In this document: positions 6,341 through 59,906 of the stretch, piece by piece
How positions within the stretch are numbered: the first letter of the stretch is position 1
How the letters are laid out: every line of letters starts with the position of its first letter
IMG/VR virus record: IMGVR_UViG_3300001525_000506
Location: 11,552 to 75,551 of that record
DNA: 64,000 nucleotides
DNA from: a virus
Lineage: Duplodnaviria > Caudoviricetes
Direction: 5' to 3' (one strand)
Notes under the pieces: model-generated
Seen by the model: only the letters and a program-made list of their open reading frames with translations
What the model was told of the DNA's origin: nothing
Database searches by the model: none
Program-made: the position numbers and the translations under genes

Positions 6341-6398
6341 AACTTATATCTCCTGCTGCGATTCTTTGCGATATGAACAGTATCGTGTGTATTTGTAG

Positions 6399-6680
6399 TT
6401 AGTTTTCCACACATACAACATTTTGCTTTCTGCATTTCGTTTTACTCCTTTTTCTTTCCACGTTTATCAACTGGAACGAGAGAATCCCAACATTATTAAG
6501 TTTCGACTCTTTTTCTATAAAGTCCCTTATACCATTGATTGTGTTTGCGGAATCGATTTTACGATTTATACTGATAATTGTAGTACCAATTCCGTCCGCA
6601 AAAATATATGCAATCAAATAATTATATGTTTTCATTGTTTCCTTCTTCTCCTTCACATTCGACTTCTCAGATGTTTTCAT
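6399..6680 (-). CDS. Hypothetical protein
   Basis: Operon packing. Confidence 0.5.
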   Translation of the reverse strand: MKTSEKSNVKEKKETMKTYNYLIAYIFADGIGTTIISINRKIDSANTINGIRDFIEKESKLNNVGILSFQLINVERKRSKTKCRKQNVVCVEN

Positions 6681-7293: not shown

Positions 7294-7940
7294 CTCCTTT
7301 CAGCTTCTTCCTCATCTTGCTTTTTCCACATTTCGAATACACGTTTCCAGCACTCGACGGCGTCATCGCATTCGCATTCGCCCTCGACACCGCCGCAGTA
7401 GTCGAACATTTCTTCGTCGAGCGGTGAATAGTTACAAGGCGAATCAAAACTGTCTGCAAGATGTTTTGCAACCATTCTCGTAAATTTTTCGATTTCTTTA
7501 TCGAGTTGACGCTCGAATTCGGTCTGCGGCGACTTCAAAATTGCGAACGGGATTTTATCGGGGAGAAAATATTTCGTCGGATGGATTTCGAGACCGCATA
7601 TCGTCGGCGGGATATCAAGTACCTTAGTACGCCCTCCGCCCTGGTCGATAGAGATAGGGATAGAAGGGGTTTTGCAAACATTTTCGTTTACGATAATCGT
7701 GTTTGCGAATACTTTCTCACGCAATGCAACGTCTTGTGCTTTTTTGATTTTTTGGACAATGTCTTCGAGCGTTTTCGTTTCAAAAGCGTCGTCTTTTGCC
7801 TTCTCGATGTCTTTTTCGGAAATGAATATACGATAATGTTCGTCTTTTGTCGCATTATATAAATCGACTTGATACATATTTATATTGCCGATAAATTCGA
7901 TTGCGTCTATTTCAATTCTGTCACTCATTATGTTCCTCAT
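7278..7940 (-). CDS. Hypothetical protein
   Basis: Operon packing; C-terminal Cys cluster. Confidence 0.55.
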   Translation of the reverse strand: MRNIMSDRIEIDAIEFIGNINMYQVDLYNATKDEHYRIFISEKDIEKAKDDAFETKTLEDIVQKIKKAQDVALREKVFANTIIVNENVCKTPSIPISIDQGGGRTKVLDIPPTICGLEIHPTKYFLPDKIPFAILKSPQTEFERQLDKEIEKFTRMVAKHLADSFDSPCNYSPLDEEMFDYCGGVEGECECDDAVECWKRVFEMWKKQDEEEAERRWNEE

Positions 7941-31712: not shown

Positions 31713-33968
31713 TCACGCCATTATATGAGTCAACACGACATTAAACGTTTTTTCTTCTGTCGGTATCTTCTTCGCATAGATTCTTATACCAAAAATGTCT
31801 GCGCCCCAAGTTTCAACAAATGGCGCAAAATTACCGCTATATATATCATCTACGCTTGTCGGGATTACTTCGGGAACATATGTATTTATATCATACACAA
31901 TATTTTGCCTAATGCTGGCTGGACATATCAATTCAATGCTATAATTATATCCATATTCTTGATATTTTGTATCTTGTGTCCAAGAAGATACTCCTGCCGT
32001 TACCGAAAACGAAACTATGTTTGTATCGATTGAGTTTTTCGCCGTTATATCTATCGAGTCAGTCAAGGTTCCATCTGTTTTCGAAAACACAACGGTTGTC
32101 GTTGTGTTATCTTCGGTAATTTCCGTTTTTGTTACTCTTGCGGTGCTAATACCGACGCCCTGTTCGCCTTGTTGTCCTTTTACATTTTTGAAAGCAAAAG
32201 CAAAACGGGGTGCCAATGTTGTTCCGCTTTTTGTCACATCTACTGACGGAGTACCGACATTATTATCAACGGTAGCAGATATAGTTATATTTGGTGTCGC
32301 ACCTGTATCGCCTTGCCCGCCTTTTAATCCTTTGAATTTCAAATTAAAAGTAGGATTCTCCGCAGTTCCGCTTTTTGTCACATCTACTGACGGAGTACCT
32401 GTCGTATTCTCAACGAGTGCAGACATGTTTATATCTGGCGTATTTCCAATTTCACCCTTTAGGTTGCTGAAAGCAAAATCAAATACTTTTCCACCAGGAT
32501 AATCACCGTCATTACCAGTTGTAACTTTTACAGAAGGCGTCCCTACATTATTGTCAACCGTTGCCGTGGCTCGCACGTGCGGAGTTGTGCCATTATCTCC
32601 CTTTTGACCTTTTAAGTTTTTGAAGGCAAGAGTAAATTTTGGGTAATCTATAGAGGTACTTTTTGTTATTTCTACAGACGGGATGCCGACATTATCGTCG
32701 ATGGTTGCCTCCATTGTTATAAACGGTGTTTTTCCCGTCTCGCCTTTTATATTTTTGAACGCAAAGTCAAAAACAGGATTTGAAAGTGTACCACTTTTTG
32801 TGACTTCTGCAGAAGGCGTCCCTACATTATTATCGACAGTTGCGGATATGCTTATATTTGGAGGAGCACCTCTTGTTGCGAGAACAGCATATACATACAA
32901 AGGTTCTTTTATATCAGACGCGCCTCCAATATGTCCGATAACCAAAAAAGTATCACCCGAAACAGAGTTTTCCCAAAAATATATTATATCATCATATATG
33001 GATACTTCTCTATTATACCATTGCGCTTGTCCAGACAAATCGTACCAACCGTTAATTTGAGGGTCAGTGTCGAATACGAGTTTTGTTTGACAAATAACAT
33101 ATCCTAAACCTGTTTTTCCCGTATTACCCGTAAAACAAACCGCAGTCGTGCTGTCGAATTGCGCCGAAACGATTTCGTCATCGGATATATTAGTAACCGT
33201 TGCCATTACGACATAGTCTTTGGAAGTGTCCTCGAGTTCGTAAAAATACAAGAAACTCTCGTCTTTTTTCGGCATTCTGTTGAAATCATCCGCTTTCATT
33301 TGCATGCTGAAAACAGTCCCGTCTTTTGTAAACGCGTCTTCGGATTCTTTTTGGTCTATTTTGTTGTAAACGAGTTGCGGTCTGAGATAATCGCCGAGAA
33401 TATATTGTTGCAAAAGCCAGTTAAACTCAGAACTGTTCACGATACCGTCGGGCAACAGAACCGCATCCTCGACCGTAAACGCAACGCGTTCGAGAGAAAG
33501 CCAATTTGATATGACAGTAGAATCTGCAACGGCAACTTTTCCAGCCTGAATCGTCATCAAGACCGTTCCGCCACGCTTAAACACATCGCCTTCGGAAACG
33601 TATTCGATAGTGGTTTTGTCTGCGTTTGCGAGTTCGGAAAGCCTTCCACACGGAACTTCTATTGCAAAGAACTCGTACTCTTTGCCGTATTGGAAGTGTT
33701 TAAGGTCACGGTTCCTGTCGAACGGAACGGTTTTTGTCACGAGATTATCATCGCGGGTTACGGAATAATCTTCGTTCAAAACCTCGCCGTCTGCGAGTTG
33801 GAACCAGTATTTTAATGAATATATGTTTTTCGCGATTTTGCCCGAATCGGGTCTGCTGGCATCTTCGATAAAAACATTGACCGTATTCACGCCAACGTTG
33901 TATTGTCGCAATGCCTCATCGTTTATAGTTTCGAGCAATGTGCCCTTGCTGTCAAAATATAAATACAC
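31713..33968 (-). CDS. BppU-like fibre protein with five ~46-aa repeats
   Basis: GTG start after aaggag; N-terminus YLYFDSKGTLLETINDEALRQYN paralogous to 45432-46286; repeats SATVDNNVGTPSVxVTKSGT..F.F.FKN.KG..G. Confidence 0.75.
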   Translation of the reverse strand: MYLYFDSKGTLLETINDEALRQYNVGVNTVNVFIEDASRPDSGKIAKNIYSLKYWFQLADGEVLNEDYSVTRDDNLVTKTVPFDRNRDLKHFQYGKEYEFFAIEVPCGRLSELANADKTTIEYVSEGDVFKRGGTVLMTIQAGKVAVADSTVISNWLSLERVAFTVEDAVLLPDGIVNSSEFNWLLQQYILGDYLRPQLVYNKIDQKESEDAFTKDGTVFSMQMKADDFNRMPKKDESFLYFYELEDTSKDYVVMATVTNISDDEIVSAQFDSTTAVCFTGNTGKTGLGYVICQTKLVFDTDPQINGWYDLSGQAQWYNREVSIYDDIIYFWENSVSGDTFLVIGHIGGASDIKEPLYVYAVLATRGAPPNISISATVDNNVGTPSAEVTKSGTLSNPVFDFAFKNIKGETGKTPFITMEATIDDNVGIPSVEITKSTSIDYPKFTLAFKNLKGQKGDNGTTPHVRATATVDNNVGTPSVKVTTGNDGDYPGGKVFDFAFSNLKGEIGNTPDINMSALVENTTGTPSVDVTKSGTAENPTFNLKFKGLKGGQGDTGATPNITISATVDNNVGTPSVDVTKSGTTLAPRFAFAFKNVKGQQGEQGVGISTARVTKTEITEDNTTTTVVFSKTDGTLTDSIDITAKNSIDTNIVSFSVTAGVSSWTQDTKYQEYGYNYSIELICPASIRQNIVYDINTYVPEVIPTSVDDIYSGNFAPFVETWGADIFGIRIYAKKIPTEEKTFNVVLTHIMA

Positions 33969-34039
33969 GGAAATTATCTCCTTTTTCGTTATATCATTAG
34001 TATAAAACAAAAAAATATGTTAGTCAAGATTTACAGAAC

Positions 34040-38767: not shown

Positions 38768-39388
38768 TTATTTAGTTTGTTCTGCTTTCCAGGCTTGGAA
38801 GTTGCCTTTATATCCGTTTGCAATCGCAACTCTAAATGCTTGCTCTTCTTTCGCCTTTTCGACTTCTGCCGCCTTCTCAGCTTCTGCTTTTTGTTTCTCG
38901 GCAACATAATCGTCAAGAGAAACATCTACGGAGACGGAACCATCAAGCATACCTGCGCGCCATTCGGATTCATATTTAGTCCTTGCGGCTTCTGCTTGAG
39001 CTTTTTCTTGTTCCAACTTTTCTTCCTCAGCTTGTTTCGCAGCCTCTTCCTCAGCCTCGAAATCTTGCTCCGCTTTCAAAATCGCGTCATAAGCCTTATC
39101 GAAACCGACTTTTTCAGCAATCTTTCTGCCTTCATATTGTTTTACATTCTCGAAGCCAGCGCCTTTTACGCCGAAAATGTTCGCGATAAACAACACGATA
39201 CAGATAATAACGCCGATGCAAATATTTGCCCACAACGGGAGCTCTACGTGACCGACGAGCAAACCGCAAGTGGTTGCGCCGCCTGTTGCTACAGAAGCAA
39301 TAAGACCAGAAACCATACCAACGATGGTCTTCGGGTTTCTCTTCAAAAAGTTCAAGAATTTGTTTTCCTTGATTTTTTCCTTACACAT
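38768..39388 (-). CDS. 2-TM plus coiled-coil protein (holin-like)
   Basis: RBS gaggt then MCKEK; two TM helices, EAEKAA-rich tail; frame stays open upstream to ~39690 without a canonical start. Confidence 0.6.
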   Translation of the reverse strand: MCKEKIKENKFLNFLKRNPKTIVGMVSGLIASVATGGATTCGLLVGHVELPLWANICIGVIICIVLFIANIFGVKGAGFENVKQYEGRKIAEKVGFDKAYDAILKAEQDFEAEEEAAKQAEEEKLEQEKAQAEAARTKYESEWRAGMLDGSVSVDVSLDDYVAEKQKAEAEKAAEVEKAKEEQAFRVAIANGYKGNFQAWKAEQTK

Positions 39389-39689
39389 ATCTATAAACCT
39401 CAATATTTTATTTATTTTATCGTTACCTTCTTTATAGGTAAGCTTTTTTACTGCAGGTTTCAGTACAACTGTAATACCTTTCGCAAGTCCCTTTGCTGTG
39501 ACTTTTACGGTTTGTGTTAGTACAACTACTAATAAAAACGATAAGGTTTTGGCGATAACGGTTGTTATTGTGTATGCTATTGCCTCTTCTATAAATTCTT
39601 CTATAATTTCGTATGTAAGAAGTAATCCGAACCCCTTACAAAACGTCTTTATCCAAGAACCAAATTTCCCCTTGTTTTCGTGAACCTTA

Positions 39690-40007
39690 TTACAAGACGA
39701 GCGACACCATTTCGGGCACAGCGTCGGATGCGACTTCAACAACGTTTTGCTCATCTTGCGCCTCCGATGCCTCAACAACGGGCTCTTCAACCACATCGAC
39801 AATACCCAATCTCGATTTCAAATCATCACGATAGGCAATTACTTGCGCAATATTTTCTTCGGTGTATTCCGCAACATTCGCTTGTGCTTGTTCGTAAGCA
39901 ATCTTTGCTTCTTCAAGTTTTTCAACGGCTTTATCTTTGCCGTCAATCCACTCGTTACACTCATCGAGTTTATCTCGCATAAGTTTTTCGATGTTGATAA
40001 GTTCCAT
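39690..40007 (-). CDS. Acidic coiled-coil protein
   Basis: RBS taggagatatatt. Confidence 0.6.
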   Translation of the reverse strand: MELINIEKLMRDKLDECNEWIDGKDKAVEKLEEAKIAYEQAQANVAEYTEENIAQVIAYRDDLKSRLGIVDVVEEPVVEASEAQDEQNVVEVASDAVPEMVSLVL

Positions 40008-40029: not shown

Positions 40030-40656
40030 TCAAATAATTTTTAGTCCACTCAATACGCCGAGTGTTATTGCCCCAGCCAGTATTAGACCGAATATAATCC
40101 ACACTGTGACCTTAATTCTCGGTCGTGTGCGTTCGTCCGCTTTCTCGTAGCGACAAATGATACCGTCAATCCCGTCTATCAACATTCTAACAAATCCGCA
40201 CGGTACTTTGATTACAAGTACGCCGATAAGATAGAACGGTGTCAAGAGCGGAACGACTATCATCTGCAACCACTTGGGCAAGTGAGAAACGATGTTGAAC
40301 GTGTCAAAAAGCGTCTTGTTGCTGTCGAACTCGGACTTTTGCAACTCGGTTTCGCTGTCTTTCAAGTCCTTTTTCGTCTTGGTGATTTTCGCTTGTTGCT
40401 CACCAATGAGTTCGTCTTGCTTGCCTTTCGCGAGGGCTTGAACGGTTGCTTCATCTTCCACCGCTTTCGCCGTCGCCATTGCGTTCACGACATCTTTCGC
40501 TTGCTCTTCGTAGGATTGGTCTGTATTGAGTTTGAATTTGACATCTTTCAGCGAAACATCGGCAATCGGCTTGTCCGTGGTATCAGCCACTTGCATAGCC
40601 TTTTCTTGCGCATTTTCGCTTTCGATTTTGTCAAAGTCAACCATATCAACCATCAT
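40030..40656 (-). CDS. Coiled-coil plus 2-TM membrane protein
   Basis: RBS gtaggtaga; C-terminal hydrophobic helices. Confidence 0.6.
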   Translation of the reverse strand: MMVDMVDFDKIESENAQEKAMQVADTTDKPIADVSLKDVKFKLNTDQSYEEQAKDVVNAMATAKAVEDEATVQALAKGKQDELIGEQQAKITKTKKDLKDSETELQKSEFDSNKTLFDTFNIVSHLPKWLQMIVVPLLTPFYLIGVLVIKVPCGFVRMLIDGIDGIICRYEKADERTRPRIKVTVWIIFGLILAGAITLGVLSGLKII

Positions 40657-40733
40657 TCTACCTACTCATCTCGCACTATAAACCTTTTATCCGCGAATGT
40701 CAATACTTTATGACAATTTTGTTGGAAAAATTT

Positions 40734-41099
40734 TTACAGCAACTTGATTGTAGCCTCTTTGCTCGCAATCGCCGCCTCGTAATCGTTGATTTGTTTGCGC
40801 CAACTCTTGCGTTGCTCTTTAATCGGCGCATAGTCAACTTCAAGCATTTCGCCCTCCGCAAACTTAATCGCTTGGTAGTCGGTTTTGTTGAGGTTGCGTT
40901 TCAAGTCCGAGATTGTGCGCACCAACTCATTGATTTCGTCACGAATTGCAGCGATATTCAAATTCCTGTTGCGTTGCGAAGTCGCCTCGTCCGCTTTCGC
41001 TTGGAAATATGCGCTGTCCTCTTCCGTCATAATGTGCGCATTGTCTGGGAGAATGTACTTTTGTTTGCTACCATCTTCTTTATCTACTACATATATCAT
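40734..41099 (-). CDS. Tail-fibre-associated chaperone-like protein
   Basis: LKRNLNKTDYQAIKFAEG..Y..IKEQRKSWRKQIN, typical of small genes after fibre genes. Confidence 0.6.
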   Translation of the reverse strand: MIYVVDKEDGSKQKYILPDNAHIMTEEDSAYFQAKADEATSQRNRNLNIAAIRDEINELVRTISDLKRNLNKTDYQAIKFAEGEMLEVDYAPIKEQRKSWRKQINDYEAAIASKEATIKLL

Positions 41100-41112: not shown

Positions 41113-42216
41113 TTAGCCAATCTGTGTTCTTATGTATTCTGCCATAAGAATAGCATTCGCTGCTTGAACTGTTATAGGGTCATACAAGACTGTGATTGTG
41201 ACCTGATTGGTATCTGAATTTTGTACGGTACTATAAGCATTATGACAAAAACAAATAGTTGGGTCGTTTGACATATCGCTCGAAACCAAAGAATAACCTG
41301 TATATGATGCCAACGGAGCACCATTTTTTTCATAGGCAATGAAATCACTTGAAGAAAAGTTTTTCCATTTACTCAAAAAACTATCAATATCGAAACTATC
41401 TTTTATTACATAAGTTCCGCAAGTCATTGCGCCCCTAATTGTCCCACTACGGACTTCTTGCCCAGTTATTTTACCGTTGAACTCGGCAACGAGATAACCA
41501 ATTGCTTTGGCATAGCTTCTTCCTGAATATATTAAATTCCAAGCACCAGCTCGCCCGTTCTGTGGCGTGGTTTTTTGAGAAGATAGCGCACTGTCTTGTA
41601 AATTGTTTAGATTTGTATACGAACCGACATCGGTAGTCGTCCCGCAAATAACAGTGAACAAATCGTTTAGCACGCGACAAACTATTGATGTAGCGTAACA
41701 TTGTGTTGCGGGTATTCCAACGACTGTATCCTCTTTTAGAAATGCGCTTTCGTTTATGCCAAAACAAAACTGCGGGACATTATTGTCGAACGCTACTTGC
41801 GCAAGACCAATTACTAATTTTGCGCCATAACTCGTATGTGAGCCAAGTGCTGCGTATGAAGTATATGCGCCAGTACAATCAAATACATATTCGACCCCTG
41901 AATCGTTCCACGGAATATCGCTCCAATATTTGTCGCTGGTAGGTGCAACTTGTGTAAACGCCACATAAATGCCGTTAATAACGAAACGTTTATGGTCGCT
42001 GTCATAAGACACTTCTTTATCCCACACTCCATAAACAGTGTCGTACTTTAACAAATAAGCCAATTGGTCAGGGTCGCTAACATCATTTACTGCTGCAACT
42101 GTTATCGTGTAGCCGCCAATAGAAGAAAAATCGTTAAATTTACTATCAAAAAGCATTCTCAACAATCGTCTGCCGAGAACACCAAGACCGTTTATACCAA
42201 CTTTCAATTCTGCCAA
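41113..42216 (-). CDS. GAPDH homologue lacking catalytic residues (pseudoenzyme)
   Basis: KVGINGLGVLGR, AVNDV, LLKYD, IPW, FDCTG, RAGAWNLI, AKAIG..FNGKITG, LVSSD; ASCTTNC replaced by PATQCYA and TIHAY by DVGSY; TTG start with aaggagg. Confidence 0.9.
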   Translation of the reverse strand: MAELKVGINGLGVLGRRLLRMLFDSKFNDFSSIGGYTITVAAVNDVSDPDQLAYLLKYDTVYGVWDKEVSYDSDHKRFVINGIYVAFTQVAPTSDKYWSDIPWNDSGVEYVFDCTGAYTSYAALGSHTSYGAKLVIGLAQVAFDNNVPQFCFGINESAFLKEDTVVGIPATQCYATSIVCRVLNDLFTVICGTTTDVGSYTNLNNLQDSALSSQKTTPQNGRAGAWNLIYSGRSYAKAIGYLVAEFNGKITGQEVRSGTIRGAMTCGTYVIKDSFDIDSFLSKWKNFSSSDFIAYEKNGAPLASYTGYSLVSSDMSNDPTICFCHNAYSTVQNSDTNQVTITVLYDPITVQAANAILMAEYIRTQIG

Positions 42217-42228
42217 AACTATTCCTCC

Positions 42229-43848
42229 TTAATATATATCATTGAAAAAACTCGTTGTCTGTGTACCACCACTAATCGTGCCCAAGTCAATAAGACCGCT
42301 GCTGTCAGCCGTATATGTCGTTCCATTCACCTTGACTTGCAAATTCACCCATTTCGGGGCTAACGAACCGCCTTGCGACATCGCAAATTGACTTGATGAA
42401 CCGCTGTTACCGCTGAATTGTAAAGACTTTGAAACGTTTATTCCACTACTGAATGTTTTGAAACCAGAAAAAGTTTGCGCCTCACCATCCGACATTGTTT
42501 GTTGCTTTACCCAAGGACTCCAACTGGCTGGAGGAACTACTGAATAACGGACATAAGTAGTGAACTCAACAGTGCTATAAGGTCCGATTTTATACAATGT
42601 CTGTTTAGCATAATTATTTTTACTCTTTTCAATTTCAAGTATAAACGGCATAGTATCCGTAATATCACTCGGTCTATGTGTACAAGTATTACCGCTTGCT
42701 GCACGATACCAGCCAACTTCCATAATTGAGTTCAAATTTTCGTTTGTGAGTTCAGTGTACCCGTGTTTCGAGTTGTCCGTCTCACTGGGAATTGTTGGCT
42801 TATCAGCCAGGTCGTTATAAGAACCCGAAGTCGCAACAGCTGCGAGGTCTGATTTTTCTGCATAATCGACATTTTCTGCTGATGTTACACGACCTTGTGA
42901 ATTCACATGAACGTTATTATATTTACCTTCAGTTACTCCTGTATTAGCTAAATTAACTGTAAGACCAGTCCCCTTACCGCTACTTCGTTGTGTGAGTGAA
43001 AACGAGCCAGGTGGAAAATAAATCATCTTATATTCAGACCCGTCGTAATCAAATTCTCTTCGTACTGAATTGTTTTCAGTTCCAGATACATTTAATACAT
43101 TTGCAACTTTACTTGCGGTCGGAGTTCCCAAATCCACCAATCCAGTATCGTCTGGCGATTTCGTTTCGTCTCCTATCTTAACCTGTGTTACAGTGCCCTT
43201 ATTTGTTGTGTATCCACTATCGTTCGTGAGTTCGGACACTTTGGTCGGCACGTCCGAGTACAGAGCCAAGTCATTGCTGTTGTACTTAGGTCTTGTTTCT
43301 TTACCACGCAAACGAGCATTATACGAGGAACTACCCATCGTCAGGTCGGTAGCGTTCATAAAGCCGAATATTGTGCTTGTGCCGCTGTCGGTTATTTGAC
43401 CGTTCTCACCGTTGTTAAGAGCAATTTTAGACGCATTTGCGCCGTCACCACCCGTTACTTTAAGTGGGCTCGTGAGAGTACCGCCCGCAAGTCCGTCAAT
43501 AGATGTTACCGCACTCGGGACGTCCGATGCCAATGCTAAATCTTTATACGTAGTGCCATCGGTTGTGTATTGAGGGCGTGCCAAACTACCACGCAACGTA
43601 ATTGGGAACGTGGTCTGTCCGAAAAACACTCGCTCGGCATTGAAATGATACATCGCATTGCCTTTCGAGTTTTCAAGCGTGTCCATTTTGGGAGTACCTG
43701 TAAATGTCCAAACACCCGAAATCGTTTCCGCATCTGCTTTCTTGGCATAAACCGAAAGGTCGGGTGGATTGGATAACACATTATATGGTATCCTTACCTC
43801 CTCTTTTTCGGTGGCACTTGTTTTTTTATATATCTTATATGTTGCCAT
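42229..43848 (-). CDS. Tail fibre protein
   Basis: TGVTEGKYNNVHVNSQGRVT, VATSGSYNDLADKPTIP, knob-like LNSIMEVGWY..PFILE..WSPW. Confidence 0.8.
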   Translation of the reverse strand: MATYKIYKKTSATEKEEVRIPYNVLSNPPDLSVYAKKADAETISGVWTFTGTPKMDTLENSKGNAMYHFNAERVFFGQTTFPITLRGSLARPQYTTDGTTYKDLALASDVPSAVTSIDGLAGGTLTSPLKVTGGDGANASKIALNNGENGQITDSGTSTIFGFMNATDLTMGSSSYNARLRGKETRPKYNSNDLALYSDVPTKVSELTNDSGYTTNKGTVTQVKIGDETKSPDDTGLVDLGTPTASKVANVLNVSGTENNSVRREFDYDGSEYKMIYFPPGSFSLTQRSSGKGTGLTVNLANTGVTEGKYNNVHVNSQGRVTSAENVDYAEKSDLAAVATSGSYNDLADKPTIPSETDNSKHGYTELTNENLNSIMEVGWYRAASGNTCTHRPSDITDTMPFILEIEKSKNNYAKQTLYKIGPYSTVEFTTYVRYSVVPPASWSPWVKQQTMSDGEAQTFSGFKTFSSGINVSKSLQFSGNSGSSSQFAMSQGGSLAPKWVNLQVKVNGTTYTADSSGLIDLGTISGGTQTTSFFNDIY

Positions 43849-43869: not shown

Positions 43870-45417
43870 TTATGATTGCAACTCCATAAACAAGCCACCA
43901 ATCATAAGACTATCACTGGGCTTTGTTTGACCTTTTGTTCCCCATTCAATGGATTGTCCACCAGCAGTTACACGACCTTTTGCATTTACATTTACGGCGC
44001 TGTATTGACCTGCAACAACACCCGTCGGACGAAGATGGATATTTGTTCCAGTATATTCCGAACCGTCATAAACGTTGTCCGATACGGCATTGCCATAGAA
44101 GTCATCTTTATCGAAAGACAAAACCTTCTTTTCCGAGCCGTCATAAGCATTGTGAGTTATCTCACTGCTGTTTGTCTCGTCAGGTGTCGTAATCAAGAAC
44201 TTGTTCGCGACCTTATCCGATGACGCAGCGTGTTTTGCCTCTTTTACGGTCGTTGTGTTGCCGTCAAAGATATCGCTTATATTTCGGTCGCCGATTTTTT
44301 CGGTAACTTTTTTAGCCGTATCCGCAGATGTTGCGTGGTCTGCCTCAGCTGCCTTGCCTACTGCTGTCGTGCCATCTTTGATGTTTGAAATCTCGGTCGC
44401 ATTCGCATTCGCTTTCGAAAGCGCATTATCTGCAGTCTCTTTTACTTCGTTGATTGCACCGACAATCGTCTTAGCGTCGGTTTCAAGCTTCTCATCTTCT
44501 TTCTTTTGATAATCGTCCAAATCCGTTGCCAAATCGTCTTTGGTTACGTAATTCGTCAAATCGACCTTTTCCGTTTCCAACTTCGAGAAAGTGAAGTAGC
44601 CAACGGTAAGACCATAAGTAGTATCGAGCGCATCAACAATTGCTTGGTCAGTTGTATAAGTATAAAGTGTGCTAACAGCATTAACACGAGATACCCACAA
44701 ATCTGGCACACCGAGTGTCTTGATATACACATTATCACCGACACCCATTGCAGTTGAACCCAAAGCATCAGTTGCGGTTACAAACGCCTGATAGTTATCA
44801 TACGTGAATGTTCTCGCTTTTCCTGCAATAGCCTCTTGCAACTCTTGCTTGGTCGCATAGCCTTTATCTTCTGCCTCAAGAACACGACCTTTGTTATCGA
44901 CCTTAATGCCCTGATAAGTGCCAGGTGTAACACCAGTCTTTTTCAATGAATAAGACACCGATTGCGTAGAAGAGGACGTATTGCCCTCCATAACAAAGTC
45001 ATCGCCGTCCATCGACAATTGCGTATCTTTTGAACCGTCATACGGAACAGAAGTTATACCGCCGCCGTCAAGTGTGCCAGATAAGCGCAAGTCGTGAGTA
45101 ACCTTGCCTGCCTCTTTAACGACTTTATCTTTATCGGCGGTATTGTCAACGTTACCGAGACCAACTGCAGCCTTGGACAATTTCGCAATCTTATCTTCGA
45201 CAATTGACTCGCCGTTTACGTCTTGTACATCATCTACTTTGCCTGCACTTGCGACGCCTTCAGCCAATTCTTGAAGAGCGCCTTCAACATTTGTGGAAGT
45301 AAACTTGTCGCCAGCATCAGCAAGCGTTACTTGCTCAGCCGAAGTTTCGGGAAGGACTTGTATTAGAGTACCGTCAGCGTCCACAACGCGATGTATTCTT
45401 CGTTTTTCAGTTGCCAT
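43870..45417 (-). CDS. Tail fibre protein
   Basis: VGLGNVDNTAD, two TGVxxGxY..V.V..KGRV repeats, LETDAKTIVGAINEV. Confidence 0.8.
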   Translation of the reverse strand: MATEKRRIHRVVDADGTLIQVLPETSAEQVTLADAGDKFTSTNVEGALQELAEGVASAGKVDDVQDVNGESIVEDKIAKLSKAAVGLGNVDNTADKDKVVKEAGKVTHDLRLSGTLDGGGITSVPYDGSKDTQLSMDGDDFVMEGNTSSSTQSVSYSLKKTGVTPGTYQGIKVDNKGRVLEAEDKGYATKQELQEAIAGKARTFTYDNYQAFVTATDALGSTAMGVGDNVYIKTLGVPDLWVSRVNAVSTLYTYTTDQAIVDALDTTYGLTVGYFTFSKLETEKVDLTNYVTKDDLATDLDDYQKKEDEKLETDAKTIVGAINEVKETADNALSKANANATEISNIKDGTTAVGKAAEADHATSADTAKKVTEKIGDRNISDIFDGNTTTVKEAKHAASSDKVANKFLITTPDETNSSEITHNAYDGSEKKVLSFDKDDFYGNAVSDNVYDGSEYTGTNIHLRPTGVVAGQYSAVNVNAKGRVTAGGQSIEWGTKGQTKPSDSLMIGGLFMELQS

Positions 45418-45431: not shown

Positions 45432-46286
45432 TTAGTTTTCAATATATACATAATCGTCTTTGTCAAGTTTGCTAAAATCGACTTCGCTTACATCCTTGAC
45501 CGCAACGATTTTTGTTGTCATATCCTTGACCTCTTGTAAGGTCATTCTAAAGCCGACACCGTTATCACTGACAAACACTTCAGCCGATTGTCTAAACGTC
45601 TTTGTCGGCGGCACAGCGAGGCTACGGAACGATTTCAGATTTATCGGCACCAGCCCCAAATCCTCTGCGGTTTTATTCCCTTGCAGTGTCACGTCATTGA
45701 TTGACGGCTTGTTGATAAGATTGTTGTAATCTTTATTATCCGCAGCCGATTTTTCGACCACTCTCAATAGATATTCGAATTGCGAGACCGAAATCGAATC
45801 CGACGGAATCACGACTTCTTTTTCGATTGTGAACACGACTTTGCCGAGAGTTAGTTCTTTTACGCCTTTCTCGTATATAGCCTTTATCGACAACGAAACT
45901 GGTCCCGAATCCTCGAATATGTTGTATTCATAGATATCGTTCCCGTCCTCGTCCTTGTCGATAATCTTTCCGCTCGGCATTCGGATTTTGAACATCTTGT
46001 ACTGAACGCCGTACTTGAACTTCTGCAAATCGCGCTTTGAGTTCATCGGAATGGTCTCGATAACGATTTCGTCGCCAGGGTGGTCGATTGTCGAATACAC
46101 TTCGGTTTCGTCACCGTTCGGGCGCTCGAACCAGTATTGTAGATAACTCAACCCGTCGGGCAATTCCGTTGTAGGCGAATTCTCGATGTAAACATACATC
46201 GTATTCACGTCATAGTTATATTGTCTTAAAGCCTCGTCGTTTATGACTTCGAGCAAGACGCCTTTTGGGTCAAAATACAAATACAT
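45432..46286 (-). CDS. BppU-like baseplate/fibre anchor protein
   Basis: YLYFDPKG..INDEALRQYN; DYNNLINKPSINDVTLQGNKTAEDLGL. Confidence 0.7.
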   Translation of the reverse strand: MYLYFDPKGVLLEVINDEALRQYNYDVNTMYVYIENSPTTELPDGLSYLQYWFERPNGDETEVYSTIDHPGDEIVIETIPMNSKRDLQKFKYGVQYKMFKIRMPSGKIIDKDEDGNDIYEYNIFEDSGPVSLSIKAIYEKGVKELTLGKVVFTIEKEVVIPSDSISVSQFEYLLRVVEKSAADNKDYNNLINKPSINDVTLQGNKTAEDLGLVPINLKSFRSLAVPPTKTFRQSAEVFVSDNGVGFRMTLQEVKDMTTKIVAVKDVSEVDFSKLDKDDYVYIEN

Positions 46287-46663: not shown

Positions 46664-47101
46664 TCAACAACTCCACAATCCCGTTCCAGCCCAATCGCTC
46701 ATACGGATTTTCTTGCTCCACAAACCGCACAGTTGCAATTCGCGCTTTGCATTCGGAGCCAAAGCTAACTTTTTCAATGTTTCAATATCGACTATGATGC
46801 CCTTTTCGGGGTCCATACCGCTATCGACCGAAATGTCGCCGTTCTTGAATATATATATGGCTTGTTCGAGCAATGCTCTTTTATAGTGTTCTTTTTGGTA
46901 ATCAGAAAAATTAGGGTACTCGACACTAACCTTTCGGAAACATTCTGCGTCTATCATCGATTCCATTCTGTCCTCGATACGTTTCAAGAACGCCATTTGC
47001 TTATTACTCGGATTAGTATCGTCTTTCAATATCGACAAATCGATACCGAAATAGTCCCTAAAATCGTCTGGTGTTATATACTTTGTTTGAAGTTGTCCCA
47101 T
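46664..47101 (-). CDS. Putative head-tail adaptor
   Basis: YITPDDFRDY..KRALLEQAIY..LAPNAKRELQLCGL. Confidence 0.65.
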   Translation of the reverse strand: MGQLQTKYITPDDFRDYFGIDLSILKDDTNPSNKQMAFLKRIEDRMESMIDAECFRKVSVEYPNFSDYQKEHYKRALLEQAIYIFKNGDISVDSGMDPEKGIIVDIETLKKLALAPNAKRELQLCGLWSKKIRMSDWAGTGLWSC

Positions 47102-47164: not shown

Positions 47165-50100
47165 TTAAGTCGTCGTTTCGATTTGTGTTCTAACCGAAGA
47201 AGATATAGAAACTTCGTTTACTTCGAAATGGAAATCAACATAACCATCTTGCAAGTTTACTGCTATGTTTACGGGGATTGCGAAAGATTTTGTACTTTTC
47301 GCCCCCATTTCTTCATCGAAATCTTTTTTAGCTGCGCCATTTTTATCAAAGATATTACCTTTGACCGATACCGCAATAGGATTCGGGTTAAAAACGGTTA
47401 AGTCCACGTATTGCCTTGAAGCGCCTATTTCGGAACTTGCACTATAATCGGTCGGTGTTGCAATCGAAAGTTTCAATTGTACAGCTTTTTGTTCGGGCGC
47501 TACCGTCAATTCGTATGAGTTTTTCTTTATAACTTGGTTGCCTATAACCCACGATTCGAAGATTTCACTTTCACATTGCAAAGGCACTTGCTCTCCCACA
47601 TAACGACTTATACTATTGGTCTCGAATACGTTATCGACTAAACTATCGACATTGAACTTAACCATATTCGGACTCGTTGCTATCGGGTCAAAAGTCTGAT
47701 ATGTCGGTGGTTCATATTCTCCATTCTCGTCAACGCAATTGTGTACGATACCGACTTGTCTGCCTACGCTATCATAAACGCGTTCGTCTCTGTTTGTCGT
47801 CTTCGTGATATAGATGTCGATATAACCGCGGTCGAAATCTTCTTTGGTTACATTGACACCAAACACGAAATGATAGCCAGAACGGTCAGGCGTGCTCTTG
47901 TAATAAGACGCGCTATTGGTATAATCTCGTTGATATGCCGAGTCGAAATCGAAATACCAGTATCTTATCGATTGCGTTCCAGACGGAACTTGGTCTAATG
48001 CAACACGTAACTTCTTCTCGGGGACGCCTTTGTCCCTGTCGTTCACTATAGAGAATACTTCGGAAGGCTTTATCGTCGCGAACTTTTTGCCATCGTCATT
48101 ATAGTTATAAGGCAAAATCTTTGACGCGATAGTTTTGTTTATAGCTTCTTCGCTAAATTCCAAAAACATATTACGCTCTACAAGCATATTTTTCTCATAG
48201 TTTATATATGATTGTCCATCGGCACCGCTTGTAGATAATCCAGTTGGACCAGATGACATACTTGGTGAGACCTCATACTTATAATCAAAAACTTCATCAT
48301 AGAGACCACGCGCTATTGGATGGAACTCAATCTTATTTAATTGCGTGATACTTTGACCACTATTCTTTGTCCATCGAGTTATTTCTCCGTCGCCCTTTAA
48401 TATCAAATGCTTTTTATCAATTCCCGCTTCTGATACATACTCCCAATAAATACTTTGTGCGTTAAAGTTACATTGCATCCACGCGCTTTCATACCCAGTA
48501 GTTTTTACTGAAATATCTAATGTAAATTTTTGAGCGTTTTCCGCTCCTCCCTTATTTGATAATAAATTTTTAATATATCTATAACTTGTATCGGTTTGAA
48601 TTTGAATTGTTTTGCCTGTGCCTTGACTCGTTTCTATAAGAGAATATGAGAAAAAAACAGGCTCCCCCATTGATGTTCCGCTATAATTTTGACTATAACC
48701 ATTTATTCGCGGTTTTGTATCCATAGATACATCGATTTTTGCATTTCTATTCGTCAAAACTAAATCGCTTAATTTTAAGAGATATTGACCGATAACAATA
48801 TTTTTATCAGATGCAATTGGCTCAACCTGAAATGTCATATCTATGCGTTCTTTATTATCTTTGTGTATGTTTTTTTCAGAAGACGACATACTGAGCAATC
48901 GTTGTTCTCCTGGCAGTGATAATGTTTTTACAGGAAGATTTTTGCAATACGAATAGAATTGGTCCAGTGTCGCTCTACCCGAATCATTATCTAACACCAA
49001 ATTAGGTATAGAGACATCTGTATGGCTTAATTGATAATCCATATCTTTTATTGCCCCAGTTTCGCGGTCATCTACAATATCATACCATTGTTGTTCCGAA
49101 CCGACATAATATTGGTCATCTTCAGAAGGATGCAAAGCCAAAATTTTCCAATCAGAACTCCAAGTATCAATAAAATTACCTCCTGAAATATTATCAGGCA
49201 TTGCAACATTAAAACACAAACTGTTGCCGCTCGTAAATGTCTGCTCATCTACAAAAAACGGGTTCTTATCTGCGTGCGTTTTTATTATCGCATTATTTAT
49301 GTCGCATATTCTGCTCGAAGGCAAAAATGCGCTAAACAATGTTTCTACGCCTATTTCTGTTATCTTATCTGCCTCTTCTTCTTCAAACCAATCGACAAAA
49401 TATGGCATTATGCTTATTTCGTCTATTATTTGATAAAGAATTATAAGATACTTACCGTTTCTATCTTCTTGACCGCCTTCGCCCGTTATTGTAATAGGTA
49501 AAAAATAATGTTTACCTATTGTAAGAGAATAAGCATCAAGTATGCCACCTGCTAAAAAAATCTTTCCTTTGAAAGCATCCCATACTGATGACTGAGAAGA
49601 TATTGTTTGCGAACATTTTATGGTTTCAAAGTTATATTTGTGCCCCTTTATCTCAAAAAATGTTTTTTCGTCTTTATGTTTTTTGTTTTTAGACAAAAGT
49701 ATAAGCGTTTTTTTATTTTCAGCCCGATTCACAGATTCGCCATAAGACATAAGCTGATATGTCCTATATTTTGCATAAACACTTGTATAAAAATTCTTCA
49801 AGACATAATCTTGTATCCCCGCATATGACACGGAAATATAATTATCGAATATCGAATATTCTCTGCGATAAATGATTACGTCATCATCTGCACCAATAGT
49901 ACCCGTATTCCCAAGCCTTAATATATTCGCAACAGAATAATTATTGCCATCGAGACGACCTTTTAACAAATGTGTCTTATTTGCGAATCTGTTTAATTTC
50001 TCTTTTTGAGATAACCCATCTTTTTCGAGTAGTGTGAGAGAAGAAGAAGAATTATCATTAGAAATAATATTATCTCTGCCCTCATCTCTTGAGTGTACTA

Positions 50101-51808
50101 TTGCCCCATCATAAAATCCCTCATATTCTATTTCAAAAAACACCGTTTTTAGACGTTGGGTATTAGATATCCCTTCAAAGGGATATAATTTTTCAAAATT
50201 TGATACCCAATTATTTGGTATAAAAGTATTTACAAGAACATAATTTTTTGCCGATATATTTTGTTCTTTATAAGTTGCTCCATTATACAAATAAATCATT
50301 CCGTGGGTAAAATCGTCTGTTGTAGTTCCCGTATGTCGATAATAATTATTCTCAATGGGCGTAAAATCGCTTTCAGAGAGGTCTTGTTCTTTTATATTAA
50401 GCTCATTTTCTTTTTCCCTTAGAAAATCTTGCATTTGAGCGAATTCTGTTATTTCGTCTATCGCATAATTCGCGCATACTTTTTTTAAGATATTTTCAAT
50501 ATAAGTAGCTGTTACGTTATAGACCGAAAGACCATCACCACCCTCTACTATTTGGTCAACACGAGAACCCCACCCTTCTATTGTGTTTCCACCTATAGAA
50601 TATGATACTGTACTAATCTTAAATTTTGCCAAATCTTCAATAGAGGTAGGTATTTCTTTTAATTTTTTCCAATCCTGACTAAGCAAATTCCACTCGGTTT
50701 TTTCCTTTACCAATGGTAAAATATCATATTTTGACAATGTATAAACAGGTGTAACTTCTGCGTTTTCTAAACGTATAACTTCGCAAGAGAGATAAAAACA
50801 CATATTGAATTTTTTTACTTTATACAATTTATGTGTTGTTTCCAAACGCATATTTTCAAGTATCATCAAAGCACTATCTTTGCTTCTAAACCCAAAATAT
50901 TCTATAAAATTACACGTGCCATCTTGAGAAAGGGCATCAGAATATTGTCTTCTTGTACCATCACAAAAATCAGAGCTACCCATTTGCCCGACGATACGCG
51001 AAATCATACCTTCTTTTTGCAAGGTAGCAAGGTCGTATGTTTTTGTCCCCCAAGGGGTTTCTGTTCTTTCCGAAATCGCCTTTGCATATATCACGTTATC
51101 TTTGACATACGGTATCATATCCAAAGTAATCATAAGTGAAGATAAAACATCTCTCAAATTCGGATTCGATAACGAGAAATCTTGAGAATAAAAATCACTA
51201 AAAATGGATTTGAGTTCTGGTGCAACTGTGTATTTTTGCACATATTCCCAAGAGTTAATATCTACGTTTTTATCATCATCGTGGATGATTTTGTATTTTT
51301 TATACTTTGGAGAATACAAGTTTACGAAACGCACCAAATACGTATATATGTCAATCTTCTTCGAAACCACCAACGGTTGCGTAACTGAAATATTCGGGAG
51401 CTGAACGACTTCAAGCCCCTTAGTTTCGCTAAAAAGTTCAAGCGAATATGAATATATGTCTTCACTAAGATTAATAATATCTTCCGTGAATTTATCAACA
51501 AGCAAATGACGATAAAACGGGATTCTTACACCCGTTTCTTTGTCAATTTCATCTCCGTCGTGAAGCGTACCGCCGCGTCTCCAAAGTCCGATATGCGAGC
51601 CAAACCATTTTGTCTCATCTTCGCCTTCGGGCGCGCTTTCGTAAATATACACATCATCATATGGTTTTAAGCCTACGATTTGCCCCTTGATATGAGACAA
51701 TCTAACTACGCCGCTATCAAGCGTTTCGTTATATTCTTCGGTAAAAGTCACACCTTGCGCGACTTCGTGTATATATTCTTTATCGTGTATTCTAACAGTT
51801 AAGTTCAT
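47165..51808 (-). CDS. Large tail/baseplate hub protein
   Basis: 1547 aa; FTEEYNETLDSG N-terminus; tail-operon position; AT-rich central region. Confidence 0.65.
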   Translation of the reverse strand: MNLTVRIHDKEYIHEVAQGVTFTEEYNETLDSGVVRLSHIKGQIVGLKPYDDVYIYESAPEGEDETKWFGSHIGLWRRGGTLHDGDEIDKETGVRIPFYRHLLVDKFTEDIINLSEDIYSYSLELFSETKGLEVVQLPNISVTQPLVVSKKIDIYTYLVRFVNLYSPKYKKYKIIHDDDKNVDINSWEYVQKYTVAPELKSIFSDFYSQDFSLSNPNLRDVLSSLMITLDMIPYVKDNVIYAKAISERTETPWGTKTYDLATLQKEGMISRIVGQMGSSDFCDGTRRQYSDALSQDGTCNFIEYFGFRSKDSALMILENMRLETTHKLYKVKKFNMCFYLSCEVIRLENAEVTPVYTLSKYDILPLVKEKTEWNLLSQDWKKLKEIPTSIEDLAKFKISTVSYSIGGNTIEGWGSRVDQIVEGGDGLSVYNVTATYIENILKKVCANYAIDEITEFAQMQDFLREKENELNIKEQDLSESDFTPIENNYYRHTGTTTDDFTHGMIYLYNGATYKEQNISAKNYVLVNTFIPNNWVSNFEKLYPFEGISNTQRLKTVFFEIEYEGFYDGAIVHSRDEGRDNIISNDNSSSSLTLLEKDGLSQKEKLNRFANKTHLLKGRLDGNNYSVANILRLGNTGTIGADDDVIIYRREYSIFDNYISVSYAGIQDYVLKNFYTSVYAKYRTYQLMSYGESVNRAENKKTLILLSKNKKHKDEKTFFEIKGHKYNFETIKCSQTISSQSSVWDAFKGKIFLAGGILDAYSLTIGKHYFLPITITGEGGQEDRNGKYLIILYQIIDEISIMPYFVDWFEEEEADKITEIGVETLFSAFLPSSRICDINNAIIKTHADKNPFFVDEQTFTSGNSLCFNVAMPDNISGGNFIDTWSSDWKILALHPSEDDQYYVGSEQQWYDIVDDRETGAIKDMDYQLSHTDVSIPNLVLDNDSGRATLDQFYSYCKNLPVKTLSLPGEQRLLSMSSSEKNIHKDNKERIDMTFQVEPIASDKNIVIGQYLLKLSDLVLTNRNAKIDVSMDTKPRINGYSQNYSGTSMGEPVFFSYSLIETSQGTGKTIQIQTDTSYRYIKNLLSNKGGAENAQKFTLDISVKTTGYESAWMQCNFNAQSIYWEYVSEAGIDKKHLILKGDGEITRWTKNSGQSITQLNKIEFHPIARGLYDEVFDYKYEVSPSMSSGPTGLSTSGADGQSYINYEKNMLVERNMFLEFSEEAINKTIASKILPYNYNDDGKKFATIKPSEVFSIVNDRDKGVPEKKLRVALDQVPSGTQSIRYWYFDFDSAYQRDYTNSASYYKSTPDRSGYHFVFGVNVTKEDFDRGYIDIYITKTTNRDERVYDSVGRQVGIVHNCVDENGEYEPPTYQTFDPIATSPNMVKFNVDSLVDNVFETNSISRYVGEQVPLQCESEIFESWVIGNQVIKKNSYELTVAPEQKAVQLKLSIATPTDYSASSEIGASRQYVDLTVFNPNPIAVSVKGNIFDKNGAAKKDFDEEMGAKSTKSFAIPVNIAVNLQDGYVDFHFEVNEVSISSSVRTQIETTT

Positions 51809-58619: not shown

Positions 58620-59906
58620 TTAGCCAACTGGAACCGTGGTCGTTGCCAAGATTTTCTTGTCGCTATCGATTGCGTAGTATTTGGTTGCCGCAGATACGAC
58701 GTCGCCCTCATGAGCAAGAGTGAAGTTCGTAAGCGTATCGCCGACATCCTTCGTGGTTGTGCCGCTACCGCCGTCAGACTTGGTGTCGGTAGAAGTGCCA
58801 ACAAAGACGAGTGCGTTACCAGGAATGGTCGCAATAGAGGAGATGATGTGCTTGTTGTCGCTCTTTCTGACTTTCGTCATAATGTCAAGAGCAAGTGCGG
58901 GTACGACATCCTCAGATTTTTTGACTTTGTTGAGGTAGATTGCAATTCTCTTGTTGTCGGGTACGAACACGTCGTGATAAATTCTCGCGAAAATCGTGTA
59001 ACCGTCGAAACCACGTGCTGCAAGGTTTGCCTCGCCAGAGATAACTTTGACTTTCTCATATTTCACAACGTGCATAATCGCACTCTTTGCGACCATAAGG
59101 AAGTTGATGCCTCTGGAACCTTCGCCCCAAGTATAACCGCCGCTTACGAGGCTGATATCGGTACGAAGTCTGTCGGGAGATACCGTGATAAGTGTTCTGC
59201 CTTCATATTTCTCAATCTTGAAACGAATATCTTTGTTTGCATTGTAATCTTCTTGGGTGAGGAATTTGTGAATTTCGCCAGAGTTACGCAATGCCGTCAT
59301 AAATGCGGGCGAGCAGAATGCGACTTGGTCGTCTGCAGGAACTTCGTGCTCCTCGAAATATTGGAATGCCGCGTTCAATGCAGCAAGCGGTTTTGCGGTT
59401 GCAGGGTCACTGTAATCGCCTTCAACGGTTGCAGCACTCGTTGCATAACTTGCAATCGTGCTCAAGCAGTATGCGTCAACTTCAGGAACGATGGTCGTTC
59501 TGCTGATTTCCGTTACGCCGAGACCGACAAGTTCGTCACCGCTCTCTTCGTTGTCGAAGTATTCGATTTCAAATGCAGCCGCGCGGTCACATCTGAGAGT
59601 GAACTCTTCCCAAGTAAGTCTTGCGGGGCTCTTTTGATAGCCGAAATCGCTTGCGCCCACAAAATTCGTGTCAGAGGACGGAACTTGCGGAACTCTGCTG
59701 TCGCCGTAGCCGTTTGCGTTGTTGTTTCTGTAGTAGTCGTTAAGACCACCGTTTTGGAATTTACCAATCTTAACGGTCTTTGCACCCGTGAATTGCAAAA
59801 GTTTCGGATTCGCGTCGAGTACGCTCGTGACCGCTTCTTGTTTGTACACAAGGTCCCAATACTTAGGACTGTAATTGGTAATAAGTTCAATGTTGTTGTT
59901 AGGCAT
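58620..59906 (-). CDS. Major capsid protein with C-terminal extension
   Basis: NNIELITNYSP..DLVYKQEAVTSVLD, GAKTVKI, WEEFTL..DRAAAFEIE..DNEE, VPEVDAYCLS, RIYHDVFVPDNK; follows scaffold. Confidence 0.88.
   Translation of the reverse strand: MPNNNIELITNYSPKYWDLVYKQEAVTSVLDANPKLLQFTGAKTVKIGKFQNGGLNDYYRNNNANGYGDSRVPQVPSSDTNFVGASDFGYQKSPARLTWEEFTLRCDRAAAFEIEYFDNEESGDELVGLGVTEISRTTIVPEVDAYCLSTIASYATSAATVEGDYSDPATAKPLAALNAAFQYFEEHEVPADDQVAFCSPAFMTALRNSGEIHKFLTQEDYNANKDIRFKIEKYEGRTLITVSPDRLRTDISLVSGGYTWGEGSRGINFLMVAKSAIMHVVKYEKVKVISGEANLAARGFDGYTIFARIYHDVFVPDNKRIAIYLNKVKKSEDVVPALALDIMTKVRKSDNKHIISSIATIPGNALVFVGTSTDTKSDGGSGTTTKDVGDTLTNFTLAHEGDVVSAATKYYAIDSDKKILATTTVPVG

Follow-up and report, generated by a model that had tools for sequence, protein, structure and literature searches.

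Both gp38 of T2/T6-type phages and Tfa of Mu, P2 and lambda are in-trans adhesins or assembly factors located at fibre tips. Here we compare with these systems, and with type I glyceraldehyde-3-phosphate dehydrogenase (GAPDH; TIGR01534; PF00044 + PF02800), a gene in a 64,000-nucleotide stretch of DNA from an uncultured gut phage (hereafter the window) that corresponds to bases 11552–75551 of the 75,551-bp IMG/VR virus record IMGVR_UViG_3300001525_000506, rated complete by CheckV. The gene encodes a 367-aa GAPDH-like protein that has the GAPDH fold and has lost the catalytic residues, evolves under purifying selection, belongs to a conserved gene cassette in which its expression is translationally coupled to that of the protein encoded just upstream (hereafter the carrier), and is exchanged together with fibre genes between related phages. 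With moderate confidence, we regard its product as an in-trans subunit of the fibre or an in-trans adhesin, which would dock on the C-terminal tail of the fibre protein.

The gene resembles those of gp38 and Tfa in lying immediately downstream of a fibre gene and within an exchangeable host-range block, and its product would, by analogy, be expected to bind the C-terminal end of the fibre. It differs in its unrelated fold, and no sequence or profile similarity to gp38 or Tfa was found: the protein matches GAPDH families only, while gp38, Caudo_TAP and other tail-fibre assembly families gave no match. The logic, i.e. a pseudoenzyme recruited as an in-trans fibre component, would be a known one; what is new is the use of this fold, the plug at the C-terminus, the small partner that always accompanies it and the recurrence of glycolytic enzymes. 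Full-text literature searches retrieved no report of a phage tail protein resembling GAPDH, and a BFVD fold search with the structural model returned no viral structural protein of GAPDH fold.

The phage protein shares with type I GAPDH the two-domain architecture (Pfam Gp_dh_N, 6e-22; Gp_dh_C, 3e-10) at 24–33% identity, with a best PDB match to GAPDH of 2e-31. An AlphaFold2 (AF2) model, with 74 relatives as input, has a mean predicted local distance difference test score (pLDDT) of 90.9, the S-loop (~residues 200–225) being its sole uncertain part, and Foldseek aligns it with solved GAPDHs at template modelling (TM) scores of 0.8–0.9. The original prediction, made from the sequence of the window, had claimed full-length homology to GAPDH and had proposed a structure prediction of the protein alone as a check; the domains, the PDB match and the model all bear this claim out. 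The protein differs from the enzyme in being ~30 aa longer and in being encoded in tail modules, not glycolytic operons. It scores 145.3 bits against the type I GAPDH equivalog TIGR01534, whose cut-off is 367.2 bits, in agreement with the earlier view that it is not a metabolic auxiliary gene. A match to PHROG 21942 (unknown function; E 5.2e-33, residues 5–358) may only reflect a generic GAPDH PHROG, as the score is no better than that to cellular GAPDH.

We then aligned the GAPDH-like family with 47 catalytic GAPDHs, using the definitions of the substrate-phosphate (Ps; Thr179/Arg231) and inorganic-phosphate (Pi; Ser148/Thr208–Ala210) sites from PMC9287727. The family keeps GxGxxG, Asn-Asp (Asp32), LLKYD, Trp, Cys-x-Gly, Tyr-Thr (Thr179), the S-loop Asp, R-A-x-A-x-N (GRAGAWN in the window), Arg231, VSSD and Tyr-Asp, and the motifs that had been listed as kept (GINGLGVLGR, ND, LLKYD, PW, CTG, GRAGAWN, AKAIG..NGK and VSSD) are all present in the window protein. 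The predicted adenosine-side contacts to nicotinamide adenine dinucleotide (NAD) and the Ps site are kept and near-invariant in the family (G10/G12/G15, D45, T201 and R256). By contrast, Arg10, Ser119, Ser148-Cys149-Thr150-Thr151-Asn152, His176, Ser-Thr208-Gly209 and Asn313-Glu314 are replaced, Arg194 has become an invariant Gln, and Pro233 (the Pro of R-V-P) has become Gly. The four motifs earlier listed as lost have indeed all been lost: (i) SCTTN reads ATQCY, with Thr171 at the Cys149 position; (ii) the His of TxHAYT (His176) is Gly198; (iii) STGAA of the Pi site reads GRSYA; and (iv) YDNE, which contacts nicotinamide, reads YDPI. Cys149 and His176 are replaced in 74 of the 74 aligned family members, as are Ser148/Thr150, Thr208/Gly209, Ser119, Arg10 and Asn313/Glu314. 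Standard position 195 is Asn in the window protein (Asn or Val in the family), and the Arg of R-A-x-A-x-N corresponds to standard position 197. As judged from the alignment, the protein is without the residues for thioester catalysis, inorganic-phosphate attack and nicotinamide positioning.

A word-indexed search identified ~70 unnamed metagenomic clusters of 340–395 aa (E 1e-132 to 1e-35), behind which ordinary GAPDHs begin at ~1e-33. An exhaustive search agrees and adds a second subfamily of 324–345 aa with the motif AYTNxQNTIDS...GRAxAWN. Phylogenies built with FastTree unite the phage-type sequences in a single clade (support 0.988–0.996), which numbers at least 85 metagenomic clusters and contains none of the 95 catalytic GAPDHs sampled. 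Among 185,579 prokaryotic species genomes (one per species), the best 80 of 579 matches are ordinary GAPDHs with 26–33% identity, which indicates that the family is essentially confined to phages. A scan of IMG/VR with the family profile found a single distant locus (L007, see below). At the nucleotide level, the region matched none of the 50,697 phage records searched, and a protein search of the same records gave ordinary GAPDHs only, from host-contaminated or very large records. The closest catalytic matches are Bacillota GAPDHs, which makes Bacillota the putative donor of a GAPDH that was probably captured by a phage lineage from its bacterial host.

The closest relative carrying such a gene is L001, whose GAPDH-like gene is 59% identical to that of the window. 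L001 also encodes homologues of thymidylate synthase and of an HMUDK/HMUD1-type kinase (L001:17573–20304), a hint that the DNA of this phage may contain hypermodified thymidine.

The lost catalytic residues could in principle mean that a captured metabolic gene has lost its function and is decaying, and neutral decay was named at the outset as an outcome that would count against a functional protein. The proposed analyses of synteny and of the ratio of nonsynonymous to synonymous substitution rates (dN/dS) refute this explanation, to which we give practically no credence. More than 80 sequence clusters have full-length, uninterrupted frames, a 74-sequence alignment contains 12 invariant and 46 nearly invariant columns, pairwise dN/dS (NG86) is 0.19–0.30, and synteny and coupling are conserved. 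The most conserved segments are residues 11–20, 51–60, 201–210, 221–230, 311–320 and 341–360, which, placed by GAPDH homology, probably line the former coenzyme/substrate cleft. The family also has invariant polar residues of its own (i.e. Tyr62, Asn202–205, Asp208, Gln219 and Trp226).

The gene neighbourhood was read in 13 phage types (the window, L001, L002, L003/4, L005/6, L007, L008, L009, L010, L011, L092/93, L094 and L099), and the GAPDH-like gene lies in the tail module in all 13. Neighbours across the loci encode capsid, connector, HK97 gp10-like, Dit_N, collagen-repeat fibre, Peptidase_S74, leucine-rich repeat and DUF5048 proteins. One member lies in a prophage-like region: the L006 copy of the locus runs directly into SpoIIAA/AB, SigF and SpoVA genes, where the near-identical L005 has integrase and repressor-like genes. 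This identifies the host of L006 as a spore-forming member of the Bacillota, and the strong Shine–Dalgarno sites are consistent with Bacillota hosts.

Comparison of the window with its close relative L009 reveals that the GAPDH-like gene lies inside a swapped host-range block. The flanking 145-, 123-, 284-, 121- and 344-aa proteins are 90–95% identical between the two phages, and a 765-aa protein is 86% identical, with a nucleotide identity of 82–91% in the flanks. Between these flanks, the 515-aa fibre-like protein is 41% identical, the 539-aa fibre-like protein is 62% identical over its C-terminal 190 aa only, and the GAPDH-like protein is 36% identical. Nucleotide identity is lost at the start of the GAPDH-like gene, with no similarity past its first ~70 bases, and returns at the 121-aa gene. 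Similarly, the window and L002 share 80% identity in the fibre tail, 89% in the 121-aa protein and 40% in the GAPDH-like protein. Three phages carry two GAPDH-like paralogues in tandem. L094 has a duplicated cassette (L094:4191–7122), in which a fibre ending in FNDIY is followed by two GAPDH-like proteins, each with its own partner: the first, of 346 aa, is very divergent, has no Pfam match and precedes a partner of 125 aa; the second, of 379 aa, precedes one of 119 aa. Conserved flanks, a replaced middle and tandem alternatives are expected of receptor-binding modules, and by this analogy the observed pattern would fit such a module.

In 12 of the 13 phage types, the last five residues of the carrier, directly before the stop codon, are (F/Y)N(D/E)(I/Y)Y. 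The carriers are otherwise unrelated to one another and comprise proteins of 114, 180, 186, 283, 308, 501, 504, 512, 539 and 701 aa, a 790-aa collagen-repeat protein and an end-cut protein of at least 221 aa in L099. In most loci, conservation extends over the ~35 residues ahead of the tail motif (VxVNGTTYTADxxGLxDLGxISGG); the ~39-aa C-terminal module is 65–83% identical between otherwise unrelated carriers and contains no cysteines. Across six frames of 277 kb, 16 occurrences of the tail motif are terminal and one is internal. Its codons vary synonymously (AAT/AAC, GAT/GAG and ATA/ATT/ATC), all three stop codons are used, and the spacers to the GAPDH-like gene are 5–14 nt long with no constant frame. 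These features imply selection on the peptide, and they exclude a fusion of the fibre and GAPDH-like genes by read-through or frameshifting. To our knowledge, attachment through a five-residue C-terminal tail motif has not been described for gp38/Tfa systems, and no such description turned up in the literature.

The carrier stop codon overlaps a ribosome-binding site of the GGAGG type (once GAGG) in 10 of the 11 junctions read, with GGTGAG in L094 instead. In the window, where a strong ribosome-binding site had been predicted, this site is AAGGAGG. The overlap indicates that expression of the GAPDH-like gene is coupled to that of the carrier. Given that carriers can be as small as 114, 180 and 186 aa, the GAPDH-like protein would be left as the bulk of the distal structure in such phages.

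The gene next downstream of the GAPDH-like gene encodes, in 12 of the 13 phage types, a 114–125-aa protein of a single family. This family comprises 73 clusters, shares several contigs with the GAPDH-like family, and lies directly downstream of a GAPDH-like gene in every instance found. Its members are 62–93% identical across loci whose GAPDH-like proteins are 36–59% identical. In the last partner of L094 (119 aa), the C-terminal half is near-identical to the 121-aa protein of the window and the N-terminal half is unrelated. The 121-aa protein of the window has no Pfam or PDB match, and fold searches with its AF2 model returned only generic helical hairpins (ESCRT-III, prefoldin and designed bundles) at Z ~10, which is within the noise range for long helices. 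Lambda Tfa/Caudo_TAP and DUF4376 were considered as candidate relatives and found no support: hhalign of the family with lambda Tfa gave a probability of 0.05, and Pfam searches with all 38 family members were unsupportive. The original prediction had placed the GAPDH-like gene between a distal fibre gene and a fibre-chaperone-like gene; the location at the end of the tail-fibre unit holds, whereas the 121-aa neighbour matches no chaperone family.

These observations bear on the possibility that the GAPDH-like protein is itself an assembly or capping chaperone of the fibre, which would bind the tail during folding or trimerization and then leave, or stay without touching the host, and would not act as the receptor-binding element. 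We consider this rather unlikely. Its location directly after a fibre gene is the classical place for a Tfa/gp38-type factor, translation is coupled to the fibre gene, the tail is invariant across unrelated fibres as a generic handle might be, and a second small helper-like protein co-occurs. A chaperone, however, would be expected to co-vary with the domain it folds, whereas the fibre C-terminus is conserved (65–83%) and the GAPDH-like protein is the most diverged of the block (36%). Moreover, carriers of 114–186 aa offer little to fold, tandem paralogues are more easily understood as alternative heads, and the small, highly conserved 121-aa protein is a better candidate for such a role.

Two members of the clade keep Cys149, His176 and YDNE, namely L007 (an IMG/VR contig of 76.6 kb; gene at 5998–7419) and L099 (678–2046), with SCSTE/SCTTQ around Cys149 and T/S-x-HAYT around His176. 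Both genes lie in the tail slot described above, with a gene of the ~120-aa family next downstream; the protein that precedes the L099 gene ends in GNDYY, and the junction there reads TAAGAGG. In a tree rooted on catalytic GAPDH, L007 and the L099 protein (P0213) fall outside a core with 0.925 support, together with P0189 and P0243, which keep Cys149 alone, and with L094a, the divergent copy that keeps neither residue; deeper nodes are weakly supported (0.59). The L007 and L099 forms resemble stages on the way from a captured, active GAPDH to the dead protein of the window. Their basal position in the same slot suggests that association with the fibre cassette probably came first and that catalysis was lost later.

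Retained residues raise a further possibility, which we regard as quite improbable, that the GAPDH-like protein is an enzyme or nucleotide-dependent binder with a new chemistry, e.g. one that modifies the C-terminal tyrosine tail of the fibre or acts on a phosphorylated polymer of the cell envelope by means of the retained adenosine-binding half of the Rossmann fold. Near-invariance of GxGxxG, Asp32, Thr179, Arg231 and the S-loop, the invariant polar residues specific to the family, and the basal members with Cys149/His176 are in line with this possibility. On the other hand, the Cys149 position is Gly, Thr, Ala or others in the family and has no consistent replacement nucleophile, and contacts to the nicotinamide half and the pyrophosphate (Asn313/Glu314, Ser119 and Arg10) are lost. 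Hypervariability and cassette swapping would also be unusual for an enzyme with a fixed substrate.

A second glycolytic enzyme, triosephosphate isomerase (TIM), appears in related positions. In the L003 phage, two TIM genes in tandem (L096:7302–8908; Pfam 1e-51 and 4e-68) come after the gene for a second protein with the tail motif, which is 395 aa long and terminates in VYNDIY, and an IMG/VR contig of 127,636 bp carries an orthologous pair with 47–50% identity after fibre-like genes (L097:5070–6774). Asn10/Lys12 (GNWKMN) and Glu165 together with loop 6 (YEPxWAxGTG) are retained in all four TIM-like proteins, whereas His95 is replaced in each of them (Gln, Gln, Asn and Gln). In TIM, Asn10/Lys12, His95 and Glu165 belong to the active-site hydrogen-bond network (PMC3431843). 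The 'a' copy of L097 begins with a repeat of fibre type (IIVNGTTLTDGRVGDVDI). In the 113 nt before the first TIM-like gene of the other pair (L096:7189–7301), the N-terminal fibre repeat, uninterrupted in L097, is split over two frames; they meet near a TTTAAAG run, which may reflect either an error in sequencing or a site of frameshifting. GAPDH and TIM have different folds, and their common property is the binding of a triose phosphate; the genes thus occupy the same kind of position.

Catalytic-residue changes in two consecutive glycolytic enzymes (GAPDH-like and TIM-like) in one phage, together with retention of the adenosine half of the NAD site, could be taken to indicate an intracellular role, either as an NAD/ADP-ribose sponge against NAD-based defences or as a dominant-negative subunit that poisons host GAPDH (and TIM, in phages with TIM-like genes) and redirects carbon flow. 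Such a role appears very improbable to us. The gene lies in a late tail-fibre unit and is coupled to the fibre protein, is obligately linked to the tail motif and the 121-aa partner, and is exchanged along with the fibres; ~30% identity to cellular GAPDH makes mixed tetramers unlikely, and one TIM-like protein has a fibre-type N-terminal repeat. The sponge was one of three initial hypotheses and receives no support from the context. A virion adhesin or fibre partner fits best among the three because the gene lies in the swapped block and is coupled to that of a fibre protein whose C-terminal tail is invariant, while mucin and plasminogen, the targets suggested for such an adhesin, are without support. 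The (F/Y)NDIY tail, the ~120-aa partner, cassette swapping, the Cys/His-keeping relatives and the TIM-like genes did not figure in the original prediction.

Relying on these observations, we propose that a captured bacterial GAPDH was converted into a non-enzymatic component of a tail-fibre host-range cassette. The GAPDH-like protein would be synthesized in step with the fibre protein and would attach non-covalently to the free C-terminal tail of the fibre, where it would form the distal, host-specific head as an in-trans adhesin like T2-type gp38, and the ~120-aa protein might serve as an assembly helper. Most speculatively, the tail, with its acidic residue and terminal carboxylate flanked by tyrosines, may enter the former coenzyme/substrate cleft. 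This proposal is based on the conserved cleft segments (the GxGxxG helix, LLKxDT, S-loop, Thr179, Arg231 and VSSD) and on the acidic, tyrosine-flanked C-terminus. The acidic extreme C-termini of CP12 and of the GapB extension are known to enter the coenzyme/active-site cleft of photosynthetic GAPDH, where arginine holds them (PMC6800369, PMC4436894); in GapB, it is the terminal glutamate that arginine holds in the active site (PMC4436894). In molecular dynamics simulations, carboxylates of the peptide glutathione contact Arg195 and Arg231 of GAPDH (PMC9287727); Arg231 is kept in the phage protein and position 195 is Asn. The phage carriers resemble CP12 and GapB in their free acidic C-terminal tail (12 of 13 phage types). 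However, CP12 is a redox-switched inhibitor with a disulfide-stabilized helix and needs bound NAD, whereas the phage tail (YNDIY) has no cysteines, its contact with the cleft is a predicted one, and its purpose would be assembly instead of regulation.

Surface 'moonlighting' GAPDH of Gram-positive bacteria offers a plausible starting point for an adhesin, because it is a GAPDH fold with affinity for the cell wall; the pneumococcal protein binds peptidoglycan (PMC4415926). The difference is that the moonlighting protein is an active housekeeping enzyme, whereas the phage would carry a dedicated inactive paralogue on its virion. From the retained phosphate-site residues and the parallel with TIM, glycerol-phosphate polymers are an attractive guess for the host target. 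A broader generalization, unlikely in our estimation, would be that phages of Bacillota have repeatedly made triose-phosphate enzymes (GAPDH and, in some, His95-less TIM pairs) into receptor-binding heads of fibres, with phosphate-gripping residues kept and catalysis dropped, and that these heads bind glycerol-phosphate-type wall polymers (teichoic acids) and plug onto any (F/Y)NDIY-tailed fibre.

Several points weigh against an in-trans fibre head. First, the cleft segments are also conserved in ordinary GAPDH, so that their retention may reflect fold stability. Second, the most conserved motif of the family, the S-loop, is the only low-confidence part of the AF2 model. Third, GAPDH is normally a 222-symmetric tetramer, and fibres are usually trimers. 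Fourth, the fibre identity of the 539- and 515-aa proteins is based on weak matches and context; searches of PDB, Pfam and NCBIfam gave no match for either. Fifth, the basal L007 and L099 keep Cys149/His176 in the same slot, so that loss of catalysis does not define association with the cassette and the ancestral protein may have had an enzymatic role. Finally, a search for longer, fused forms at E <= 1e-20 found no fibre–GAPDH fusion, although this is weak evidence.

If the GAPDH-like protein is an in-trans fibre head, a housekeeping glycolytic enzyme would have been captured by a virus and rebuilt as virion attachment hardware, with Cys/His-keeping intermediates still visible. The host-range determinants of uncultured gut phages would then include a new class, the five-residue C-terminal 'plug' could be used to predict fibre–head pairs from sequence, and the family would offer a natural system for how pseudoenzymes gain binding functions. 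There is also a warning for annotation: phage 'GAPDH' and 'TIM' calls are not automatically auxiliary metabolic genes.

We also inspected the surroundings of the cassette in the window (Table 1). The minus strand carries nearly all open reading frames of at least 100 aa, leaving aside the two window ends, and a primase and a helicase are recognizable among the window genes. There is one GAPDH-like copy and no TIM gene. The G + C content of the GAPDH-like gene (0.400) had been described as the same low value as that of the fibres; it lies near the window mean (0.415), and the two fibre-like genes are higher (0.43–0.45), so that the remark is uninformative. The strong promoter-like site after the 121-aa gene suggests, by its consensus match only, that the fibre unit ends with the GAPDH-like gene and the 121-aa gene.

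Table 1. Coordinates of features in the window
Feature	Coordinates	Strand	Basis or remark
GAPDH-derived non-catalytic protein, 367 aa, TTG start	41113..42216	-	Both GAPDH domains and fold
121-aa partner, motif TDYQAIKFAEGE...WRxEIN	40734..41099	-	N-terminal beta-hairpin and long helical hairpin (AF2 pLDDT 94)
Overlap of the fibre-gene stop codon (TAA) with the ribosome-binding site (AAGGAGG) of the GAPDH-like gene	42224..42231	-	TAA 42231-42229, Shine–Dalgarno 42230-42224
Codons for C-terminal F-N-D-I-Y of upstream fibre protein	42232..42246	-	Tail motif
Conserved ~39-aa C-terminal module of fibre protein (VNLQVKVNGTTYTADSSGLIDLGTISGG...FNDIY)	42232..42348	-	
539-aa fibre-like carrier protein	42229..43848	-	No family matches; internal fibre-type beta-hairpin repeats
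515-aa fibre-like protein, in variable block	43870..45417	-	Weak tail-fibre PHROG matches (phrog_7389, 2e-5)
Promoter-like site TTGACA-17-TATAGT, 11/12 consensus	40675..40703	-	Consensus match only; opens next unit
Head-tail adaptor, weak match	46664-47101		
Major head protein	58620-59906		

Past the fibre unit, two minus-strand proteins (40030–40656 and 38768–39802) have weak matches to DUF2207_C, a predicted membrane protein family, and may be the start of a lysis/membrane module under control of the promoter-like site at 40703–40675.

A 1547-aa protein encoded upstream of the gene for the head-tail adaptor-like protein (47165–51808, minus strand) has no match in Pfam, PHROG or NCBIfam, and the G + C content of its gene is markedly low (0.36, compared with 0.415 for the window). 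It is only 39% identical to its L009 counterpart over ~450 aa, with neighbours at 90–95%, and is a second hypervariable, giant protein. The 284-aa protein (45432–46286, minus strand) and the 765-aa 'minor tail' protein (31713–34010, minus strand) have an N-terminal domain in common, each being 33–37% identical to the other's L009 counterpart over ~190–240 aa. This suggests that the shared domain is a common virion anchor on two different tail proteins.

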